64,000 nt of DNA, from NCBI GenBank assembly GCA_040005235.1, contig JBDTZG010000004.1, positions 150,392 through 214,391 of the forward strand, read 5' to 3'. This DNA comes from Acidobacteriota bacterium (lineage in GTDB: Bacteria > Acidobacteriota > Thermoanaerobaculia > Multivoradales > UBA5704). The position numbers and the translations under genes were made by a program. Below, piece after piece: positions 10,712-25,744 of this stretch. Numbering within the stretch: the first letter of the stretch is position 1; each line of letters starts with the position of its first letter. Below the pieces are notes generated by a model, which saw nothing but the letters and a program-made list of their open reading frames with translations, was not told where the DNA came from and did no database searches.

Positions 10712-11323
10712 TTGAGCCAGCGCAAACCCCTCCCGCTCCGCTTCTACCGCCGCCCGACCGAGCTCGTCGCCCGTGAGCTGCTCGGTCGGTACATCGTCCG
10801 TGACCTCGAAGGCGACCGCTTGGTCCTCCGCATCGTCGAGACCGAGGCGTATCTCGGGGCTCCCGATCGGGCGAGCCATGCGTGGGGCGGTCGGCGGACG
10901 GCGCGGAAGGAGAGTTTGTACCTGCCCGGCGGGTACGCCTATGTCTATTTCATCTACGGCATGCACTTCTGTCTGAACGTGGTGACCGAAGGGGCGGATC
11001 TCGGCAGTGCGGTTCTGATCCGGGCGGGGGAGCCGGTGGCGGGGGAGGAGCGGATGCTTGCCCTGCGCGGTCTTTCGCGCGCCCGGCCGGGGGATGTTGC
11101 GGGCGGTCCTGGTCGGTTGTGCAAGGCTCTCGGGATCGACCGCGACGACGACGGCGTGCGGTTCGACCGCGGGGCGTTGAAGATCGTCGAGGGCGAGCCG
11201 GTGGGTGAGGCTGAGATCGCCAGCGGGCCGCGCGTGGGGATCGACTATGCCGCGGATGCCGTCTCGTGGCCACTGAGGTTCGCGATACGCGGCAACCCGC
11301 ATGTCTCGCGCCCGCGGCTTTAG
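10712..11323 (+). CDS. mpg: DNA-3-methyladenine glycosylase (MPG/AAG family)
   Basis: RIVETEAY, YVYFIYGMHFCLNVV, SAVLIRA, GPGRLC, GPRVGI; start uncertain (TTG 10712 chosen). Confidence 0.93.
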   Translation: MSQRKPLPLRFYRRPTELVARELLGRYIVRDLEGDRLVLRIVETEAYLGAPDRASHAWGGRRTARKESLYLPGGYAYVYFIYGMHFCLNVVTEGADLGSAVLIRAGEPVAGEERMLALRGLSRARPGDVAGGPGRLCKALGIDRDDDGVRFDRGALKIVEGEPVGEAEIASGPRVGIDYAADAVSWPLRFAIRGNPHVSRPRL

Positions 11324-11327
11324 GAGC

Positions 11328-12494
11328 TTACTTCCCCTTCCCTGCCGACAGCGTGATGTGACCCGCGTTGGCGAGCTTCCAGAACACGAGCAGGGCGTCG
11401 AGCTGGGGCATTGGCGTAATCTTGACGATCGCCTGGATGTCGTAACCGCCGGTGATGCGGGTGAGCATGAAGCCTTCCTGCGGCGAGATCTTCAGGGTCT
11501 GCAGCTCTTCCATCTTGCGCGCCAGTTTGGGCACCGAGGTGAGGCTTACGCCCGCGAGCTCGACGGCGTCTCGGACTTTTCGTTCTCCGTCGCGCAACGC
11601 GATCTCGGTGTCTCGCTTGTCCGGCTCCAGGCTCCGGGCCGCGCGCAGGTGGCGGAGCGCCAGCTCGTACTCCTTGTCTTCGAGGTAGCGCTGAGCGGCG
11701 GCCAGGAGCTGCGAGAAATCGATCGTGCCGTTGGCGCTCGGCGCCGACAGGGCCGGGAAGCGTCCCGTCATGGCGCTGTTGGGCCCTCCTACCCAGCGCG
11801 GCTTGACCACCTTGAGCCGCCCTTCGCGGTACTGGTCGAACAGGACGCGGTAGATGAAGAACTCGGTCGAGTGGGTCTCGCGCTGGATCTCGGCGACCGT
11901 CCGCTCGTCGTCGACGTGTTCGAGAATTTTGCGCTTGCCCGGATCGAGGTCGGTCTCGTCCCACATCGCGATCTGCACCGGGATCACATCCGAGGAGGGG
12001 ATCACCGAGCGCAGCCGGTTCCACTCGTCCACCCGCTGTACCCCTTCGAGGATGATCGCTGTGACATCCAGGTTCATTGGGATCATCGGGTGCTCGGGCA
12101 GCACGTCGTCCAGGAACTTGAAGTCCGCCTCCAGCCAGGTGAAAACGTCGTAGATGCTCTCTTCGGCTTTCACCCGAAGCAGGCGATGGAGGTCCGGCTC
12201 GCCGATCACCCCGGAGTCGACCAGGATGCGGCCGAGCAGGTTGCCGGTCTTGCCCTGCTGCTGGACCGCCTGGGTCAGATCCACCTCGCTGATGAACCCC
12301 TGACCGACCAGGAAATGCCCCAGATACTCCTCCGGCTTGGTCGAAGAGGAGGAGATGACCCGCCCCTCGCGAAAGTAGATCTTCTTCTCGATCTTCTCGC
12401 GCTGGATGTGCAGCGTCCCGGTCTTTTGACTCTGGGAGAGCCACTGCAGCAGCTCGGCGAGCTGCATGGTCTTGAGATTTCCGACGATGCCCAT
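11328..12494 (-). CDS. DUF4388 (PatA N-terminal-like) domain protein with C-terminal TPR-like helices
   Basis: GNLKTMQLAELLQWL..KTGTL, IYFREGRV, LGHFLV/LGRILV, FTWLEADFKF, LEGVQRVDEW. Confidence 0.85.
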   Translation of the reverse strand: MGIVGNLKTMQLAELLQWLSQSQKTGTLHIQREKIEKKIYFREGRVISSSSTKPEEYLGHFLVGQGFISEVDLTQAVQQQGKTGNLLGRILVDSGVIGEPDLHRLLRVKAEESIYDVFTWLEADFKFLDDVLPEHPMIPMNLDVTAIILEGVQRVDEWNRLRSVIPSSDVIPVQIAMWDETDLDPGKRKILEHVDDERTVAEIQRETHSTEFFIYRVLFDQYREGRLKVVKPRWVGGPNSAMTGRFPALSAPSANGTIDFSQLLAAAQRYLEDKEYELALRHLRAARSLEPDKRDTEIALRDGERKVRDAVELAGVSLTSVPKLARKMEELQTLKISPQEGFMLTRITGGYDIQAIVKITPMPQLDALLVFWKLANAGHITLSAGKGK

Positions 12495-17872: not shown

Positions 17873-19110
17873 CAGTCTGCGCTCCCGACTTCGACCGGCA
17901 TCGCCACCAAGGGGCGGGGAACTTTTTTCTCCACCAGCGGCGGATTGAACGCCGGAATGCCGGTGATCGACTCGCCGATAATCAGGGCGTGGATGTCGTG
18001 GGTTCCCTCGTAGGTGAAGACCGATTCGATGTTCAACATGTGGCGGATGACCGGATAGTCGTCCACGATGCCGTTGGCGCCCAGGATCTCGCGGGCGATC
18101 CGGGCGCATTCGCGCGCCACCCAGACGTTGTTCCGCTTGCCCAGCGAGATGTGCTGGTGCTTGAGCTTGCCGGAGTCCTTGAGCTTGCCGAGCTGGTAGG
18201 CGAGCAGTTGCCCCTTGGTGATTTCGGAGACCATCCAGACCAGCTTTTCCTGCACCATCTGGTGGCACGCGATCGGCTGCCCGGCGAACTGAATCCGTTC
18301 TTTGGCGTACTCAAGCGCCGTGTAGTAGCACTCCATGGCGGCCCCCAATCCCCCCCAGGCGATGCCGTAGCGCGCCTGGTTCAAGCACATCAACGGGCTC
18401 TTCAAGCCGGTCGAGCCGGGGAGCAGGTTTTCGGCCGGAATCCGGCAATCGTGAAAACCCAGCTCGGAGGTGGTCGAAGCCCGGAGCGAAAACTTGCCGT
18501 GCTGATCGGACGAGGTGAACCCCGGAGTGCCCTTCTCGACCAGAAAGCCGCGCACGCCGTCCTCGGTCTTCGCCCAGACGACCGCGACGTCGGCGAGCGT
18601 GCCGTTGGTGATCCACTGCTTCGAGCCGTTCAGCACCCACTCGTTGCCGACCTTTTTGGCGGTGGTCCGCATGCCGCCCGGGTTCGAGCCGAAATCGGGC
18701 TCGGTCAGGCCAAAGCAGCCGATCGCCTCGCCGGTCGACATCGGCGGAATCCAGCGGTCCTTCTGCTCTTTCGAGCCGAAGGTGTAGATCGGGTACATCA
18801 CCAGCGAGCTTTGGACCGAGACGAAGCTGCGCAACCCCGAGTCGCCGCGCTCCAGCTCCTGCATGATCAGCCCATAGGCGATGTTGTTCAGGCCCGGAAG
18901 GCCATATTCGGAGATCGTCGAGCCGAACAGGTTCATCCGCCCCATCTCGGGCACCAGCTCCAGGGGTGTGCGCCCCTCGCGATGGCACTCTTCGATGATC
19001 GGCTTGACCTTGTCATCCACGAACTCGCGCACGGTATCGCGCGCCATCCGCTCTTCTTCGGATAGGAGGGGATCGAACTCCAGGAAATCGACACCAGGGA
19101 AGCGGGCCAA
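17872..19110 (-). CDS. gcdH: Acyl-CoA dehydrogenase, glutaryl-CoA dehydrogenase-like
   Basis: TTG start 19110 after GAAGGAG; [52 protein letters not shown]. Confidence 0.88.
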
Positions 19111-19283
19111 GGGGATTCTCCTTCGCGGGGCGGCGGATCTCGGAAACCCGGGGAGGGCACCTCCCGCGCCGCGATCGTCGGTAATAAGGATAAGGACGCT
19201 TGAGCGTCCGCGGCCCAATGATACCACTCCGGGTGGGCGGGGCCGGCGGGCCCAGCCTGGTTTTCCGGGCCGCCCGCCAGCTC

Positions 19284-19387
19284 GCTTGTCCCGGGACCGC
19301 CGAGCACCAGCTCGGCACCGACGAGGAGCCAAACGTCCGGCGCTTCGAACGCCGCCGAGACGGCAGTGGTCCCGGACAAGCACACCC
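19284..19387. repeat. REP/MITE-like ~100-bp cassette, copy 1
   Basis: Terminal inverted repeats GCTTGTCC...GGACAAGC, internal hairpin GCCGAGC-acca-GCTCGGC; near-identical to 19525-19629. Confidence 0.85.
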
Positions 19388-19524
19388 GAGAGGCATCGCT
19401 GAGTGTCCTGATTCGCCGCGAGCGAAGTCATTCACTCGCGGCGTTCGCTGCTCGTTGCGCCTCTCGAAGCGGCGCTTGGAGGAGGTTGCGGATGCGGAGG
19501 CGGCAACCCAGCCCGCATGCTGAG

Positions 19525-19629
19525 GCTTGTCCTGGGACCGCCGAGCACCAGCTCGGCACCGACGAGGTGCCAAACGTCCGGCGCTTCGAAAGCCGCCGAG
19601 ACGGCGGTGGTCCAAGGACAAGCACACCC
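19525..19629. repeat. REP/MITE-like ~100-bp cassette, copy 2
   Basis: Same terminal repeats and hairpins as copy 1, with a handful of substitutions and one extra base. Confidence 0.85.
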
Positions 19630-19832
19630 ATGGCGAACCGGTTGCCCGTTGCGCCGCATCGCCCTGTTGCGACGCTTTTCTTGGAACGTCGGCGCCCGCG
19701 ATCTCGCGCAAGATCGTTTTCTCGGCCGTGCGCGGCGAATTCGGCCACCGCGCAACCCTTTTTCCCGTTCCCGAAAACACACCTTGGCCTCCGGCGAGCG
19801 CTCCACCGGTCGCCGAGATCGAATGCGTGAAG

Positions 19833-20126
19833 AAAAAGCCCCCTCCGTCCGACACGCGGAACGGTCTTCTGGCAGAAAAGATCCCTGCGCCGGACGCTCG
19901 GAATGGTCTTCCTTCAAAAAAGACCCCTACGCTGGGCCAGCGTAAGGGTCTTTTTCTTCATTTAACCCCTCCGCCGGGCTGGCGGAATGGTCTGTTTGCC
20001 CATTAGATCTTGGCGCCGGACCCGCGCAACGGTCTTTTCTCTGAGAAGACTCTTCCGTCAGGTGAGCGGAACGGTCTTTTCTCTGCGGAAACCTGTCCGC
20101 CGGGCGCGCGGAACAGTCTTTTGGGC
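19833..20126. repeat. Tandem array of 7 imperfectly palindromic 42-bp units
   Basis: CGGAACGGTCTT-like core at 19857, 19899, 19941, 19983, 20025, 20067, 20109 (exact 42-bp period); unit 3 is AAAAAGACCCCTACGCTGGGCCAGCGTAAGGGTCTTTTT. Confidence 0.85.
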
Positions 20127-20177
20127 TGGCGTGACGCTCTTGGGGTTGAGGGAGACGGCTCGGCGGACTCGGAGGGG

Positions 20178-22982
20178 CTATTCCAGGCGCGCGCGGATGT
20201 CGGCGGCTTCCTCCGAACGGCCTGCGGCTTCGAGCATTTCGGCGAGCTGGTCCATCCTAGATTTGACGATGGCTTCTCCTCGCTGCTCTCCCACCCGGCG
20301 GAATAATTCCAGGGCGGTTCGGTAGTGTTCGCGCGCAGCGTCGAAGTCAAGGGAGTCAAGAGCGATATTGCCCAAGGTTGTTCGGCTATGAGCTTCTCCA
20401 AGCGGCTCGACGAGTTGATGGGAAATGGCGACCTGGCTCGTGAGAAGCTCAACTGCCCGGCGGTTCTCGCCGAGTTCGTACGAGGCGCCGCCGAGGATGG
20501 CGAGCGCCAACGCTTCGCCTTGCCGGTCGCCGACGGCCCGGAAATATTGGAGTGCATGCTCTGAAGTCTCGGTTGCGCCTTTTCCATCGCCTGAGAGTGC
20601 ATAGATGGCACCAAGGAAATTGAGGGTACCTGCCTCTCCGCGCCGGTCGCCGACCTCTCGGAACAGTTCGAGTGCTTCGCGCAGTAAATCGACCGAGCGC
20701 TCCGTCTCGCCGAGTTGGTGGTAGAATTTGGCGAGGTGGGTGAGTGCGACTGCTTCGCCCCGTCGGTCGTTAGCGTCGCGGGTGAGGGCGAGCAGCTGCT
20801 CGGATAGTTCGATCGCCTTCTCAGGTGCCCCGATGGCCGAGTAAGCCATTCCGAGGTGACTGATGGCGTCGCTTTCTCTGCGGTGATCGCCGATTTCTCG
20901 GGCGATGCTGAGGTATTGCTCGTAGTGTTCGATCGCGCGCCGGGTTTCGCCGAGGTCTTCGTAGGCCCGGCCCATATTCCGTTGGGCGTCTCCCTCACCC
21001 TGTCGATCATCCGTCTCGCGAGAGATTCGCAATGCTTTTTCATAGAGCTCAATCGCTTGCTGGACCTCGCCCGTCGCCGTAAGGGCAAGTCCCAGATTCC
21101 GGAGGAAATATCCCTCCAGGCCTGGCCTGTGTACCCGACGAGTACCCGCCAGGCCTTGCTCAAGCCACCGGATCAACTCGCGAGGCAAAAGTCGAAGTGG
21201 AAGAAGCTGCCGTCCCGCGACCGGGTATTCGCTCGCCAGGCGCGAAGCTTCCTCCCGCACTTCGAAGTTTGCTGCCGCCCACGCTTGCCCTGCGCGGATC
21301 TGGTGGGCCTCAAGGTCGAACAGTGCGAGGCCCTCTTTGATGTCTTTCTGATGGAGGTAACTCGCCTGTCGGAGCACCTCACAAAAATACGCCGCGTGTC
21401 GAAGTCCGACGAGCGATCTTTCTTCGCTGGCCAAGGGTGACCAAACGGCCGAACACAATGAAGGATGTAGCTCAAATCTCCCCTTTCGCTCTTCGAGAAG
21501 GCCGCTGCGAACGAGAGAACCCAGGTCATTTCCTACCTCCTCCAGTTCTTCGTGAGTTAGCCCCCAAATCGCCGCAGCCGCAGGGGCGTCGAAATTTCCC
21601 GCGAAAACGCCGAGCTGTCGAAAGCGCTTCTGTAGCTCGACAGGGAGAGCCTTGAGGCTGAAAGTGACAAAGAAGAGGGTGTTTTCATACTTTGTGGGGG
21701 CCGGCTTTCTACCTTCATTCAGACCACGGATGAGCTCTTTTGGAGTGAGGTCAGGTCGTGAAGCCAGGGCGCCTGCGGCTAAGCGGAGCGTAAGGGGTAG
21801 GTGGCCGCAAAGGCGCGCGACCTCCGCTGCTTGGTCGCCGATCATTGGGGCGATTTGGCGTAATAGGGCAATAGCCTCGACTTCGCTCAGCGCGCCCAGT
21901 TGCAGTACCTGGATTGGTACCCGCCTCGGTCGTGATGATCTCGAGATCACGACGACAGAAGCACTCGGGCCGGGAATGAGCCAGTCGATGGATTCTCCAT
22001 CTTCGACATCGTCGAATATGAAAAGCCTCGGTGAACGTTCAGTTGCAGAGCGGAACAGCTTCGCGAGATCTTCCAGATTTGGTGGAGCGGCCCAAAATGG
22101 CAGGAGGTCGCTGAGAATTCCTGTTAATGCCGCCGCCACTCGGTCCTTTGGGTCGCCTGGAAGGTTGGCAAAGGGAACCCACCACACACCCTCAGAGTAG
22201 CGGGAGGCCACGGTCGGCAACACTGCCCGCATTAGGGAAGTCTTGCCGATTCCTCCCGGCCCTCTAATGAGGAGACGAGCACCGCGTTCCAAGAGGACAG
22301 CCGTCAGCTGTCGGATCTCGCTCGTACGCCCGACGAGCTTGCCTGCAAGGGACTCGCTGGCGGTTCCTGGATCCATTCGCCAAATGGAACCCCGATGTGA
22401 TTTTTCGAGGTCCTGCCCAAGGCGTAGATCCAGCGGAATGTCTCGCCGCGAACTTTCCGGCCTTGCCCCCGGCCCGAACCGGAAGACCGCATGGTGAATG
22501 CTCCAGAAATCCGGCGCTTGCCTACGGAAGACCTTCCAATCGAAAGGGTGCAGGCCGAGAAGGAACGGGGCATCCGCGCGCTTGGCGATCACATCGCGTT
22601 TCTGGTTGAGCAGAAGGAAGAGATGTCCGAGTTCGGATTCTTCGGCTTTCGTCCGTTTTCCGCCCGGGAACCAGAACCAACACGGCCTCGGGGCCTGCTC
22701 CACCTCGTCGAGGATCGCCGTGACCAGATGCTTTCCGGCGGGAGGGTTCGACAGGTCGAACCCTCGCAGATTCACGCCGTTCTCTTTGGCAAACTGCTCG
22801 AGGAGGCTTCCCAGCAGTTCCTCCGCCGCCACGTCCTCCGTCGCAACCGCCAAGAACTCGAAGCCATCTGCCAGGTCCAACACGGCCCGAAGGCGATCCC
22901 ACTCGGGTTGGTTTCGGGCTTCCCTGGCCCACGCCTCGCCGTGATCCGCAGCGCGCCCGTTTGCGGGTTGTGTCAGGGGCAC
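20178..22982 (-). CDS. NLR-like STAND protein: degenerate P-loop-like N-terminal domain + NB-ARC + TPR repeats
   Basis: Walker A GPGGIGKT, Walker B LFIFDDVE, HLPL (GLPL), ELHP (MHD-like), ~7 TPRs with GDRRGEA-type motifs; N-terminal LNQKRD...APDFWS; GTG 22982 overlaps the upstream stop. Confidence 0.85.
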   Translation of the reverse strand: MPLTQPANGRAADHGEAWAREARNQPEWDRLRAVLDLADGFEFLAVATEDVAAEELLGSLLEQFAKENGVNLRGFDLSNPPAGKHLVTAILDEVEQAPRPCWFWFPGGKRTKAEESELGHLFLLLNQKRDVIAKRADAPFLLGLHPFDWKVFRRQAPDFWSIHHAVFRFGPGARPESSRRDIPLDLRLGQDLEKSHRGSIWRMDPGTASESLAGKLVGRTSEIRQLTAVLLERGARLLIRGPGGIGKTSLMRAVLPTVASRYSEGVWWVPFANLPGDPKDRVAAALTGILSDLLPFWAAPPNLEDLAKLFRSATERSPRLFIFDDVEDGESIDWLIPGPSASVVVISRSSRPRRVPIQVLQLGALSEVEAIALLRQIAPMIGDQAAEVARLCGHLPLTLRLAAGALASRPDLTPKELIRGLNEGRKPAPTKYENTLFFVTFSLKALPVELQKRFRQLGVFAGNFDAPAAAAIWGLTHEELEEVGNDLGSLVRSGLLEERKGRFELHPSLCSAVWSPLASEERSLVGLRHAAYFCEVLRQASYLHQKDIKEGLALFDLEAHQIRAGQAWAAANFEVREEASRLASEYPVAGRQLLPLRLLPRELIRWLEQGLAGTRRVHRPGLEGYFLRNLGLALTATGEVQQAIELYEKALRISRETDDRQGEGDAQRNMGRAYEDLGETRRAIEHYEQYLSIAREIGDHRRESDAISHLGMAYSAIGAPEKAIELSEQLLALTRDANDRRGEAVALTHLAKFYHQLGETERSVDLLREALELFREVGDRRGEAGTLNFLGAIYALSGDGKGATETSEHALQYFRAVGDRQGEALALAILGGASYELGENRRAVELLTSQVAISHQLVEPLGEAHSRTTLGNIALDSLDFDAAREHYRTALELFRRVGEQRGEAIVKSRMDQLAEMLEAAGRSEEAADIRARLE

Positions 22983-24331
22983 GCCTCGGCCACCTCGTCC
23001 CAGGTTGGGCCTTGGATGCCCAGACGCAGCCAGAGAAGCGGGTGGGCGTCGTACCAATGGATCGCGTTGTGATAGCGAAGCATGAGGTAACCCTGAAGGA
23101 GGGAATCCATCCTCGCCTTGTTGCTTTCGTCGAGAGGAAACGTCCGCGCCTGATGGACCAATTTGAGCAGGCTCTCGTCCGCGGCCTCAATTCCTTCGAG
23201 ATACGTCTGGCGAACCTGGACGATGGACTGGTCGGCCACGTCGCGCGTGATCACGTCCCCATCGACCCGATAGATGCAGTCGATCACCAAGCGGAGCAGG
23301 TCGCGGATGTAGCCGCCGCTATGGACGACGAGCCACGCGGCGACGGCGGGGTCGGAGAAGTATTTGGCGCCGACCCGCTTGAACAGGGCGTCTCGCATCG
23401 CCACGACGCCTTCCACCTGGAGAGTCGGACGACCGTCTTGGCCGTCCTTCCGCTGGAAGATTCGAACCATCGGCAGGAACTGGAGTTCCTGCCCAAACTG
23501 AGCGCCCAGTTCCGGAGCCCTGCGAACCATGAAAGGCGGAACCGTATAGACCACGTGAACGGGAGGGCGAAGCTCCCGGGCATGGGTGAGAAAAGCGCCG
23601 AACCAATGATTCCGGTACTTCTCGCGCTCCTCGGGGCCGGCGAGGTCGCCCGTCGCCCGCTTTTCGATCCCGTCCAGAATGATGACGAGGGGCCTGCCGG
23701 TCTGTTCCGCCCGCTTCGCGGCTTTCCCCAACAGCTCGAAAACCTTCTTTCGAAGACCCTGGACATCGCCCAGTCGCTTGGCGACCTGCTGGAAGAGGGT
23801 AGTGTCGGTCGTCAGATTGGCTTTGACCTTCGCTGTGCCCAAGCCCACCTCGACCCCGGAAGCTTCGATTTCGGAGCCGAGGAGAAGGTTCACTTGCTTG
23901 GCGTACTCCAGTGCCCACTCAGAGAATCCTTGGGGCTGACCCTCGGGGTAGAGGGCGAGGACCAGCGCCAGAAGGATGTCGTGGTGGGTGATGGGCTCGT
24001 CGTCCTGAATCCAGGCACCGGCATCGGCAAGCTCGACCCGGTAGTTCATCCCCTCGAGATCCTTCTTGAGTTGCTTGAGCTCCGTGCTTTTGCCGCTCCC
24101 CGGCAGGCCCGTCACGATCTGCGTGGTGGGCTTGCTCGCCAGGTCAATGACCTCGGCGACCCGCTGGCGCCAGGGTTGGCCTCGGAACTCGACGGGGGAG
24201 TCGAAGTCGTAATGCCTGAGGTCGCCGGGTGGAATCGGTTCGTCGAGCTGGCAACTCTTGAGAAGCTTTCTCTTCGTGTCGTTGTCCAAGATTCCCCCGG
24301 TTTCGAGGCTACGGCGCAGCGCCTCAAACAT
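22973..24331 (-). CDS. P-loop NTPase (AAA+/STAND-like)
   Basis: Walker A GLPGSGKSTEL, Walker B VIILDGIEK, SGGYIRDLLRL, C-terminal WYDAHPLL. Confidence 0.85.
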   Translation of the reverse strand: MFEALRRSLETGGILDNDTKRKLLKSCQLDEPIPPGDLRHYDFDSPVEFRGQPWRQRVAEVIDLASKPTTQIVTGLPGSGKSTELKQLKKDLEGMNYRVELADAGAWIQDDEPITHHDILLALVLALYPEGQPQGFSEWALEYAKQVNLLLGSEIEASGVEVGLGTAKVKANLTTDTTLFQQVAKRLGDVQGLRKKVFELLGKAAKRAEQTGRPLVIILDGIEKRATGDLAGPEEREKYRNHWFGAFLTHARELRPPVHVVYTVPPFMVRRAPELGAQFGQELQFLPMVRIFQRKDGQDGRPTLQVEGVVAMRDALFKRVGAKYFSDPAVAAWLVVHSGGYIRDLLRLVIDCIYRVDGDVITRDVADQSIVQVRQTYLEGIEAADESLLKLVHQARTFPLDESNKARMDSLLQGYLMLRYHNAIHWYDAHPLLWLRLGIQGPTWDEVAEACP

Positions 24332-24421
24332 CCCTATAGGTCAACGCTGATCGTAGCTTAGGTTTCCCCGGGGCGAAAGATTCGAGTGATTCGAGGTCTC
24401 CCGCATATAAGATGCCCCCCT

Positions 24422-24688
24422 ATGGCCTTTCCTGGTGGCAGTGCCTGGTCGCTCGCTCGCGATATTGGGGAGGGCGTGCAGCTGGTCACCGAGCGTACTT
24501 TCAAGAACCTGACGCGGGCGGACCTGGATCAGCTGAATTTCGAGATCGACCGGGCGCTCAGGGATCTGCGCTCGATTGCGATTCCGCTTGAAGACATCCC
24601 GGCCATTCAACAGAAAAACCGCAAGCTCCAACGACTGAACGGCAGCGTGATCCTGCTCCGCGCGTTTCGCCAGAGGCATAAGACCTGA
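24422..24688 (+). CDS. Hypothetical helical protein, 88 aa
   Basis: Codon usage typical of the window; TAAGAT 7 nt before ATG 24422; first gene of a + strand run. Confidence 0.7.
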   Translation: MAFPGGSAWSLARDIGEGVQLVTERTFKNLTRADLDQLNFEIDRALRDLRSIAIPLEDIPAIQQKNRKLQRLNGSVILLRAFRQRHKT

Positions 24689-24691
24689 CCC

Positions 24692-25744
24692 ATGCCGGCC
24701 CGAATCTTTGAAGTCCTCGACACCATCCGACCGGCTCTCACGATCGCTTCGGGCGTTCTCGCCGCGGCCGCTTCTTACTATGTCGAACGCACGTGCGCCC
24801 GGCGGGGGCTGCTGCCGCCCGGATTTCGCGTGTTCTGGCGCCGCTCGCTCGCGTTCATGCTGCTGGCCGCTCTGTTTTGGGTGGCGGTCTTCGGGCCGCT
24901 TGCGCTGATTGGCACCGCTTCGAAGGCGGAGGTCGATTTCAAGCAGGTCAGCACCCTCGATCTGTTCGGGCTGCAGATGCTGCTCGCGTTCACCACGCTC
25001 TCCTGGTTCGGGCTCGGATTTGCGGTGCGCCCGCGCTCCCGGCCGGTTCCTCAGGTCGCCGAAATCTCTGAGATCGCCGAGGTTCCTGAGCTAGCGGAAG
25101 ACATCCTGCCCCAGATTCCGACGGACATCTCGGACGGCCAAGACGAGATCCTGTTCGAAACTCAAAACTTGGAACCCGAACCGGTTCCGGCTTCCGTTCC
25201 GGCCGAAGCGGGGCCGGCGCTCGATCCTCCCGTGCGCCTTTCCCTCGGCCGGCAGTTCGCGGCGCAGCTCGGGTTTCGGGCGCCAAAGCCGTTCGCCGAG
25301 GTCGGCTTCGGGCTGGTGGCCGGGTTTGCGATCTGGTTCGCGGTGCTCGCGGCGATGTTCCTGGTCGCGGTGGTCGTGGCGAGCCTCGGGGGCGAACGCT
25401 TCCTGCCGACGCAGGCTCCGGCGATGATCCCTTGGATGGCCGGCCTGCCGCTCATCATCCGTCTCCTGCTCAGCCTTTCGGCCGGGTTCGTCGAAGAGAC
25501 CTTCTTCCGCGGCCTGCTCCAGCCGCGGGTGGGAATCGCGTTCTCCACCGCCTGCTTCGTGCTCGCCCACGCCGCCTACGGCTCGCCGTTCCTGCTGGTC
25601 GGGGTGACGCTCCTGTCGCTGATCTATGCGTTCCTCGTCCGCTGGCGCCAGAACCTCTGGCCGGCGATCGCCGCCCATGCCCTGTTCGACGGGATTCAGC
25701 TGCTGGTGGTGATCCCCGCCGCCTTGCGGTTCATGAAGCCCTGA
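24692..25744 (+). CDS. CPBP family (CAAX/Abi) intramembrane metalloprotease
   Basis: EETFFRG, FVLAH, AIAAHALFD; multiple TM helices with an acidic low-complexity loop. Confidence 0.9.
   Translation: MPARIFEVLDTIRPALTIASGVLAAAASYYVERTCARRGLLPPGFRVFWRRSLAFMLLAALFWVAVFGPLALIGTASKAEVDFKQVSTLDLFGLQMLLAFTTLSWFGLGFAVRPRSRPVPQVAEISEIAEVPELAEDILPQIPTDISDGQDEILFETQNLEPEPVPASVPAEAGPALDPPVRLSLGRQFAAQLGFRAPKPFAEVGFGLVAGFAIWFAVLAAMFLVAVVVASLGGERFLPTQAPAMIPWMAGLPLIIRLLLSLSAGFVEETFFRGLLQPRVGIAFSTACFVLAHAAYGSPFLLVGVTLLSLIYAFLVRWRQNLWPAIAAHALFDGIQLLVVIPAALRFMKP

Follow-up and report, generated by a model that had tools for sequence, protein, structure and literature searches.

A two-gene family that pairs an active AAA+ ATPase with an inactive AAA+ core and swappable cargo, with a candidate role in conflict

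The window analyzed here is a stretch of 64,000 nucleotides (nt) from an Acidobacteriota bacterium of the Thermoanaerobaculia (GenBank assembly GCA_040005235.1, contig JBDTZG010000004.1, positions 150,392 to 214,391 of the forward strand), and it carries two overlapping genes, here called gene 1 and gene 2. Gene 1 encodes a predicted stand-alone AAA+ ATPase, and gene 2 encodes a protein in which a dead AAA+ core, the N-domain, is followed by an NB-ARC module and a TPR array. A first-pass annotation, made by a model from the letters alone, proposed that the N-domain is an inactive adaptor that docks the gene 1 product and that the pair is a candidate immunity system. Here, we find that gene 1 and the N-domain are encoded side by side far beyond chance and that the N-domain probably docks on the ATPase. 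The two genes (coordinates are those of the window) are as follows.

22973..24331, minus strand: gene 1, an open reading frame (ORF) of 452 amino acids (aa)
20178..22982, minus strand: gene 2, a dead AAA+ core, then NB-ARC, then TPR, 934 aa from the GTG at 22982

Gene 1 ends with a TGA codon at 22975-22973. The frame of gene 2 is open from a TTG at 23057 to the stop at 20178 (959 aa), and the database gene call takes a later start that leaves 901 aa. We favor the GTG at 22982 because full-length homologues of 931-932 aa cover gene 2 from residue 27 on. The two genes overlap by 85 nt with the TTG start and by 10 nt with the GTG start, and since they are co-oriented and overlap with either start, translational coupling is likely. 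A promoter scan gave no convincing promoter for the operon. The G+C content of the pair is 61.0%, against 66.6% for the remaining window. Both ORFs, their common orientation, their overlap, and their motifs lie as the first-pass annotation had described them.

The motifs of gene 1 are those of an intact nucleotide-binding protein, and the residues named below were compared across 60 aligned sequences.

24086..24109, minus strand: gene 1 Walker A GLPGSGKS (residues 75-82), with G75, G78, G80, and K81 invariant
23660..23686, minus strand: gene 1 Walker B strand VIILDGIEK (residues 216-224), with D220 and E223 invariant and K224 nearly so
23291..23320, minus strand: gene 1 lid motif SGGYIRDLLR (residues 338-347), with G340 invariant and G339, R343, and R347 nearly so
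23036..23077, minus strand: gene 1 winged-helix hairpin motif RYHNAIHWYDAHPL (residues 419-432), with W426, H430, and P431 invariant

Beside the Walker A motif, T83 and E84 are likewise invariant. The lid motif SGGYIRDLLR would, by its position, be sensor-2-like. The motif at residues 419-432 reads RYHN..W.DAHPL, has strands at 417-421 and 425-429 in the structural model, and may be a counterpart of the winged-helix histidine of STAND proteins. An AlphaFold2 (AF2) model of gene 1 (predicted local distance difference test [pLDDT], 91.1; predicted template modeling score [pTM], 0.90) has a nucleotide-binding domain, a helical lid, and a winged helix, so the layout shared by STAND and ORC/Cdc6 proteins, with Walker A, Walker B, helical lid, and winged helix, is present. 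When the model was searched with Foldseek, the best match was archaeal Cdc6/Orc1 (2qby_A; 5.9e-8), and further matches were ORC subunits, the N terminus of BrxC (9zll_A; 4e-6), CED-4, and the ATPase_2 proteins 2qen and 2fna. We conclude from the motifs, the model, and the fold matches that gene 1 is a predicted stand-alone ATPase of the ORC/Cdc6/STAND-like AAA+ kind.

Profile models place gene 1 less readily. None of the curated Pfam STAND models (NACHT, NB-ARC, AAA_16, ATPase_2, and nSTAND1, nSTAND3, and nSTAND5) reached its cut-off on gene 1: AAA_16 was weak at 27.1 bits (cut-off, 32.6), and NACHT (17.4 of 26.7), nSTAND5 (17.6 of 34), and ATPase_2 (14.1 of 33.2) also fell below. PADLOC and NCBIfam returned nothing meaningful. 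The sole Pfam model whose cut-off gene 1 clears is KAP_NTPase (PF07693), at 24.0 bits against a cut-off of 20 (expectation value [E], 2.8e-5), and the same weak label sits on many clusters of structural look-alikes in the Atlas. Likeness to KAP NTPases is confined to the first half of the profile, however, as residues 58-224 of gene 1 align to profile positions 8-162 of 293. KAP NTPases are described as having an NTPase domain interrupted by transmembrane helices. In gene 1, the insert at residues 105-215 is polar and helical, and no transmembrane segment was found in the protein, its highest 19-residue Kyte-Doolittle mean being 1.0. Moreover, the Pfam scan found no sensor or effector domain fused to gene 1, and the NTPase module fills the 452 aa.

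Relatives of gene 1 are numerous and uniform in size. A word-based search returned 151, nearly all of 427-455 aa and mostly from Myxococcota and Acidobacteriota, and those with names are all labeled hypothetical protein. The Atlas search returned many clusters of look-alikes of 427-484 aa with a whole-length template modeling (TM) score of about 0.8. These were commonest in Cyanobacteriota and were also found in Pseudomonadota, Actinomycetota, Bacteroidota, and Campylobacterota.

Gene 2 begins with the domain that ties it to gene 1. Its parts, with motif residues numbered on the long ORF from the TTG, are as follows.

22353..22982, minus strand: gene 2 N-domain, the predicted docking module, a compact core of AAA+ alpha/beta fold that has neither P-loop nor lid
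22593..22610, minus strand: N-domain motif LNQKRD (residues 150-155), family consensus LNExRN, with N and R invariant
22500..22517, minus strand: N-domain motif APDFWS (residues 181-186), family consensus APDxWSIRS
21738..22340, minus strand: gene 2 NB-ARC/AAA_16 STAND module, matching Pfam NB-ARC and AAA_16
22239-22262, minus strand: NB-ARC Walker A GPGGIGKT (residues 266-273), intact
21999-22025, minus strand: NB-ARC Walker B LFIFDDVED (residues 345-353), intact
21792-21806, minus strand: NB-ARC GHLPL (residues 418-422), intact
20223..21125, minus strand: gene 2 TPR array (residues about 645-945), matching TPR_12, TPR_1, TPR_2, TPR_7, TPR_8, and TPR_10

The core of the N-domain is roughly 170 aa. 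The loop behind its first strand (FEFLAVATEDVAAE) lacks a glycine-rich P-loop. An AF2 model built from 70 aligned sequences (pLDDT, 86.0, with the core above 90) has the alpha/beta core of an AAA+ protein, and Foldseek returned AAA+ proteins only (ORC2, RAD17-RFC, CbbX, ClpX, DnaC, and clamp-loader delta) at E of about 1e-4 and TM scores of 0.35-0.49. A search independent of Foldseek (VIA) also gave only AAA+ proteins, with Z scores of 9.3-11.5 over about 130-164 aligned residues, and Avs5 and BrxC were among them. Among the 70 N-domain sequences, N126, R129, D158, and S161 are invariant and A156 and P157 nearly so, and N126 and R129 are also invariant in sets of 148 and 99 sequences. No Pfam family matched the N-domain (residues about 26-200) even at E <= 10, and the family has no Pfam, NCBIfam, or PADLOC model.

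Behind the N-domain lies what looks like a complete receptor. NB-ARC (2.4e-6; 27.4 bits against a cut-off of 23.5) and AAA_16 (33.5 bits) both score above their Pfam cut-offs. TPR_12 matches over five stretches at 1.4e-33, the TPRs lie between about residues 650 and 940, and the count of about seven repeats given in the first-pass annotation is plausible. The TPR array is presumed to be the sensor. No enzymatic effector is visible in the window's copy, and PADLOC gave significant matches on gene 2 to generic TPR models only, with no Avs or NLR match. The reading made from the letters, namely, that gene 1 has no sensor or effector domain and that in gene 2 an NTPase-like domain lacking Walker A precedes an intact NB-ARC and TPRs, therefore agrees with the Pfam scans, the motifs, the N-domain model, and both fold searches.

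Whether gene 1 and the N-domain belong together was asked across genomes. One genome per species was searched with an alignment of gene 1, 109 loci were confirmed, and the best 80 of the 109 were used. A search with the single N-domain sequence of the window showed, for 49 loci, that the gene 1 homologue is immediately followed by an N-domain, and a one-round profile built from 23 of the 49 raised this to 75 of 80, directly downstream and on the same strand. Four of the five loci without an N-domain (L025, L065, L068, and L079) have contigs that end at or just after gene 1, and the count is 75 of 76 where there is enough DNA. The sole real exception is Plesiocystis pacifica (L003, 7001-10166), in which the gene 1 homologue has 66% identity and the two downstream frames, tested by hhalign, gave N-domain probabilities of 0.3% and 0.06%, so that no N-domain was detected there. 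Thus, the pairing lies far beyond chance, and the homologues are indeed co-encoded. Moreover, the pair appears to stand by itself. All-against-all comparison of 3363 flanking frames from the 80 loci gave no conserved third gene, the largest cluster covering 12 loci, and scanned representatives of eight of the largest clusters were kinases, histidine kinases, dehydrogenases, ABC ATPases, peptidases, a GGDEF-EAL protein, or had no Pfam match.

The two parts have also diverged together. Across 67 loci, pairwise identity in gene 1 correlates with pairwise identity in the N-domain (Spearman coefficient, 0.74, a value reached by none of 500 permutations), and the nearest gene 1 relative is within the top three N-domain neighbors in 53 of the 67. 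Since both genes are inherited together, this co-divergence shows only that partners have not been swapped. The genome of the window itself contains three pairs, on the window's contig and on contigs C46 and C21, and in each, gene 1 is directly upstream of its own N-domain protein. Their cargos, as we call the sequences behind the N-domain, differ: NB-ARC-TPR in the window, AAA_16 within a 1102-aa protein on C46 (L088, 3306-7951), and TPRs alone in the 538-aa protein of C21 (L089, 5090-8171). Compared with the window copy, the C46 partner has about 150 aa more between its N-domain and its AAA_16 module. The C46 pair is preceded by a divergently oriented gene for a UvrA-like ABC ATPase, and the same ATPase is found upstream at L018 and L019.

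The family defined by the N-domain has many members. When the N-domain region of gene 2 was used in a word-based search, only 9 close relatives came back, and a profile was needed to reveal the rest: run against 1.84 billion representative proteins (50% identity), it matched 4261 at E <= 1e-3, 1904 at E <= 1e-10, and 258 at E <= 1e-30. The domain was N-terminal in all 150 of the matches listed. The first-pass annotation had described pairs of an ATPase with an APDxW-TPR protein as widespread, and the 4261 representatives bear this out. Most of the family is found in Myxococcota and Thermoanaerobaculia and, according to the Atlas search, in Cyanobacteriota. Two variants in gene content were seen. 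At L010 (8290-8832), the partner is an N-domain alone, a 181-aa open frame with no cargo, a minimal form of the pair. At L028 (5678-6949), L032 (5860-7002), L078 (5660-6985), and L077 (2-496), the pair is immediately preceded, on its own strand, by another gene 1-like frame that is more divergent, which suggests tandem ATPase genes in some loci.

How the two proteins might meet was addressed by complex prediction. Gene 1 with the N-domain scored 0.73, 0.67, and 0.66 in three runs (median, 0.67) by the interaction prediction score from aligned errors (ipSAE), and the best control scored 0.00. Contacts agreed between runs to at least 74%, and partner pLDDT was at least 75. The ipSAE mark is reached by 58 of 80 solved complexes and by 2 of 110 mismatched pairs, counts that hold only roughly here, as both chains were supplied as alignments made for this analysis; the pass may also come in part from the likeness of paired AAA+ protomers to solved complexes. 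The predicted interface takes in 31 of the 210 N-domain residues, including 4 of the 4 invariant and 3 of the 4 nearly invariant ones (hypergeometric P = 4e-4, a rough figure), and N126, R129, P157, D158, and S161 all lie within it. On the side of gene 1, it includes P-loop residues 77-78, D103, K224, residue 225, R343, and R347. The motifs LNxxR and APDxWS are thus predicted to be placed against the nucleotide cleft of gene 1.

In AAA+ assemblies, a neighboring protomer inserts an arginine finger at the open face of the nucleotide cleft. Because the predicted interface is the open face of the gene 1 cleft, we infer a composite ATP site that would depend on the partner. The best candidate for a residue acting in trans would be the invariant arginine of LNxxR, read as an arginine finger. 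That the N-domain docks the partner ATPase, as first proposed from the letters, is supported as probable by the co-encoding in 75 of 76 loci, the co-divergence (Spearman, 0.74), and the complex prediction (ipSAE of 0.67 against 0.00).

What follows the N-domain varies. We scanned 72 downstream proteins, leaving out three that contig ends had shortened to 54-150 aa, and counted domain families at E <= 1e-5. TPRs alone were found in 28, and another 28 had no Pfam match. AAA_16, NB-ARC, or NACHT was present in 9, two of which also had TIR and one SEFIR/TIR. The remaining kinds were rarer: EAD1 or EAD5 (3 proteins), TIR alone (1), a trypsin-like peptidase (Trypsin_2; 1), a calcineurin-type phosphoesterase (Metallophos; 1), and a Pkinase with an FGE-sulfatase domain (1). 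A second sample, the best 99 of 148 aligned representatives (from 150 listed), contained TPR_12 in 48, TIR_2 in 4, EAD1 in 4, NACHT in 2, and Sigma70_r4 in 2. The window copy is therefore a less common form, one with a complete NLR-like receptor as its cargo. The first-pass annotation had called the extra NB-ARC tier unusual, and this holds insofar as it is a minority form; it is nonetheless recurrent, being met in the 9 of 72 downstream proteins and in the C46 pair.

Two further arrangements of cargo were observed. In L014 (3161-7333) and L015 (1718-4984), the partners consist of N-domain, AAA_16, TIR, NB-ARC, and TPR, so that two STAND-type modules and a TIR lie behind the dead core in one 1391-aa protein. 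A distant pair is present on the conjugative plasmid pREB2 of Acaryochloris marina (L090, 5986-12785), where a gene annotated as a P-loop NTPase fold protein overlaps that of a 1830-aa WD40 protein. The N-domain profile aligns to the N terminus of this WD40 protein with an hhalign probability of 94.9% (E, 4.3e-8). Around the pREB2 pair lie HicA/HicB and RelE/ParE modules, a tyrosine recombinase/integrase, and a NACHT gene.

How the pair might work is best explained, in our judgment, as a self-contained two-gene NTPase switch from a large family with a conflict or immune role, an explanation to which we give slightly better than even chances. In this proposal, the dead, lid-less core of gene 2 would bind gene 1 in the manner of a neighboring AAA+ protomer, with LNxxR and APDxWS facing the open side of the gene 1 cleft to form a composite, partner-dependent ATP site. 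The sequence behind the core would be swappable cargo, a TPR array in most relatives and an NB-ARC and TPR receptor in the window. The TPR array would bind a trigger, for example, a protein of a phage or other invader, the NB-ARC module would then switch and oligomerize, and oligomerization would cluster or reshape the units of dead core and gene 1. The state of the gene 1 ATPase would be a thresholding step or the output, and the output could lie in ATP turnover, in nucleic acid binding through the winged helix, or in recruiting a factor that is encoded elsewhere. For an immune pair, the output would be gene 1 itself or a factor elsewhere, since the window copy encodes no enzymatic effector. 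The repertoire of cargo domains in the family points to a conflict or immune role, and that repertoire, the differing copies per genome, and the variable gene context match the layout of known conflict systems (Kaur et al.). We put an immune or conflict role for the pair itself at a little over one half.

Several observations weigh against an immune switch, as do the limits of the complex prediction given above. In the clade of the window, CWFWFPGG replaces an aspartate that is nearly invariant in the family at the Walker B position, and WSIHH stands where the family has WSIR, the arginine being replaced. The arginine-finger reading goes beyond the predicted contacts themselves. PADLOC identified no known system in either protein. 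No recognizable defence system was seen in the flanks of 18 loci: among the 90 flanking proteins scanned there, of 361 selected, 6 matched PADLOC at E <= 1e-12, and all six matches were generic (Ser/Thr kinase, PLD-like, UvrA-like ABC ATPase, and Csa3/mad2-like regulator). The neighbors in the window look like housekeeping genes when their translations are read by eye (acyl-CoA dehydrogenase-like, GlpX-like, dCTP deaminase-like, and CPBP-like). An EAD-matched gene was sought beside the EAD-adaptor cargos of L008 and L075, and none was found. Finally, a sigma-70 region 4 helix-turn-helix occurs in 2 of the best 99 representatives, and the NB-ARC-TPR part of gene 2 resembles AfsR-type regulators, both of which fit a regulatory role.

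Because of those flanks, housekeeping neighbors, unmatched EADs, and likenesses to sigma-70 and AfsR, a regulatory switch is a serious rival. Perhaps the pair is a nonimmune signal switch akin to MalT or AfsR, in which a ligand bound by the TPRs is coupled to a response such as transcription or development and gene 1 serves as a co-ATPase or, through its winged helix, as a DNA-binding subunit. The scanned flanks of 18 loci contain no defence islands, the most common cargos are plain TPRs with no enzyme (28 of 72, and TPR_12 in 48 of 99), and Myxococcota, Thermoanaerobaculia, and Cyanobacteriota are groups rich in signaling proteins. The NCBIfam AfsR model matches residues 241-531 of gene 2 at 7e-36, but its 123.6 bits are far under the cut-off of 1430, and Pfam found no DNA-binding output domain in the window copy. 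Moreover, TIR, SEFIR, EAD1/EAD5, trypsin, and kinase-FGS cargos are reported by Kaur et al. (PMC7159879) as hallmarks of conflict systems, several paralogous pairs with differing cargos occur per genome in variable gene contexts, and one pair sits on a plasmid beside toxin-antitoxin modules. We consider nonimmune signaling possible, with chances well short of even.

The immune switch can also be cast in a narrower form. The pair may represent a large split NLR-like class in which the dead AAA+ core gives an arginine in trans to the separately encoded ORC/STAND-like ATPase. The window copy would then be a cascade of two NTPase tiers, in which NB-ARC oligomerization, driven by a ligand, assembles gene 1 into a second ATPase complex that is itself the effector, and we regard this as rather unlikely. 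Equally doubtful is the accompanying idea that gene 1, as that effector, would act by consuming ATP or by clamping nucleic acid with its winged helix. If this were true, a second ATPase as effector would be a type of output not known for bacterial or eukaryotic NLRs.

Two weaker explanations concern DNA transactions and coincidence. An ORC-like ATPase with a dead AAA+ subunit might, like DnaC, a clamp loader, or MuB/TnsC, load or target a protein on DNA for an integrated element. Both modules do match ORC, DnaC, clamp-loader, MuB, and TnsC structures, among many AAA+ proteins, and the pair is lower in G+C than its surroundings. No conserved transposase, integrase, or replication gene adjoins the pair in the 80 loci, however, and the cargos joined to the dead core are TPR, WD40, TIR, and STAND modules and not DNA transaction domains, which makes a loader or remodeler quite improbable. 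It is barely credible that the two genes are independent, gene 2 being a normal NLR-like protein of one chain whose extra domain has decayed and gene 1 an unrelated neighbor, for although gene 2 alone has a complete NB-ARC-TPR STAND receptor layout, co-encoding spans phyla and all kinds of cargo (75 of 76 loci), the reading frames overlap, the invariant N-domain residues map to the predicted interface, and the two parts co-diverge.

Other features lie around the pair. Directly downstream of gene 2, at 19838-20122, are seven tandem copies of a 42-nt hairpin-forming unit, with a bidirectional terminator-like hairpin at 19917-19955 within the array, and a close relative (L001) has the same array at 11201-11428. 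We considered the array as part of the system and rejected it, as the unit is also found on four to six other contigs: on C18, C30, and C118, partly at 42-nt spacing, and as single matches with one mismatch on C8, C83, and C119. These contigs do not include C46 and C21, which carry the other two pairs. Because the unit thus occurs on contigs that have no pair, it is a dispersed element like a repetitive extragenic palindrome (REP) and not part of the system. No Rfam family matched anywhere in 19000-20400 at E <= 0.1. Between the acyl-CoA dehydrogenase-like ORF and the hairpin array are two copies of a segment of about 105 nt (19284-19387 and 19525-19629), 241 nt apart, which share a core of 89 nt (96% identity) and an exact repeat of 14 nt and likewise have no Rfam match. 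On the other side, a 100-aa ORF (24386-24688, plus strand) is divergent from gene 1, with 55 bp between the two starts, and it is abutted by the gene for a membrane protein (24692-25744, plus strand) that is CPBP/CAAX protease-like by eye.

The pair was also compared with known systems. PADLOC, NCBIfam, and Pfam gave no named system for either protein, and a full-text literature search did not find the pair described, with the supplementary tables of PMC13581612 (589 STAND clades) lying outside the search and possibly listing the family unnamed. The view that no named system matches, taken when only the letters had been read, has therefore held through the PADLOC and literature searches. The organization is already known, that of an active and an inactive AAA+ protein with swappable cargo; the family itself is large and was not found named or described.

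Single-chain STAND defence proteins, such as Avs and bacterial NACHT proteins, share with gene 2 the layout of an NB-ARC and TPR receptor (Lee et al. 2026, PMC13581612), and TIR or NACHT modules occur in relatives of gene 2. They differ in that the N-terminal position, normally taken in them by a nuclease, TIR, SIR2, or protease effector, is occupied here by a dead AAA+ core, one that is tied to a separately encoded ATPase. NTPase-centered conflict systems (Kaur et al. 2020, eLife, PMC7159879) have a conserved NTPase gene followed by a partner with a hypervariable C terminus. Likewise, the partner here has a conserved N terminus and C termini drawn from the same pool (TIR, trypsin, phosphoesterase, EAD1, FGS, and TPR), and genomes hold several differing copies. 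The NTPase, however, is ORC/STAND-like AAA+ and not a TRAFAC GTPase or MoxR. Ternary iSTAND systems need MoxR and vWA genes, and DO-GTPase systems need GAP1. No GAP1, GASH, FNIII, or vWA component was found among the pair proteins, the cargos, or the scanned flank clusters; no MoxR or vWA was among the eight cluster representatives, and no neighbor family was conserved in the 80 loci.

The closest concepts are the nSTAND2 two-gene system and BrxC-BrxB, the likeness to nSTAND2 being at the level of organization only. As described (Kaur, Iyer, Burroughs and Aravind 2021, eLife, PMC8195603), nSTAND2 is a mobile two-gene operon with active and inactive STAND/AAA+-type modules. The inactive module, with eroded NTP-binding motifs, is fused there to variable effectors, usually GT4 or HEPN, and a hetero-oligomer formed through an arginine finger is proposed. 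The present pair likewise places one gene for an active module next to one for an inactive module, and it is to the latter that the variable modules are fused. The nSTAND2 module of the printed alignment is about 320 aa and has GG..P-type lid motifs, whereas the dead core here is about 170 aa and lid-less, and LNExRN and APDxWS are not visible, in a comparison by eye only, in that alignment. Neither GT4 nor HEPN was found in the 72 downstream proteins (E <= 1e-5) or among the 25 commonest of the 33 families matching the best 99 representatives, and no nSTAND2 model was among the Pfam matches at E <= 0.1.

BrxB offers a structurally solved precedent, as it is a compact inactive STAND protein (NAR 2026, PMC12839542; PDB 9zll and 9zdx). 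BrxC-BrxB, as presented there, and the pair described here each combine an ATPase of the ORC/Cdc6 clade with a small, lid-less AAA+/STAND core lacking Walker motifs. BrxC is 1200-1300 aa, whereas gene 1 is 452 aa, and BrxB is fast-evolving and little conserved according to PMC12839542, whereas the N-domain has invariant motifs. PADLOC gave no BREX match on the pair, and of PglZ, PglX/BrxX, BrxA, and BrxL, none was conserved in the flanks. BrxB was not among the 50 best N-domain fold matches listed, which speaks neither for nor against a relationship.

Should the composite ATP site exist as predicted, the family would be an NLR-type receptor split into a constant ATPase gene and a swappable sensor or effector gene, and the sequences behind the LNExRN...APDxWS domain would be a handle for finding new sensors and effectors. 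The window copy, with two active NTPase modules in series, would offer a test case for one NTPase switch controlling another. A dead ATPase fold would be what joins the two genes, and the family would stand as a third example beside nSTAND2 and BrxC-BrxB.

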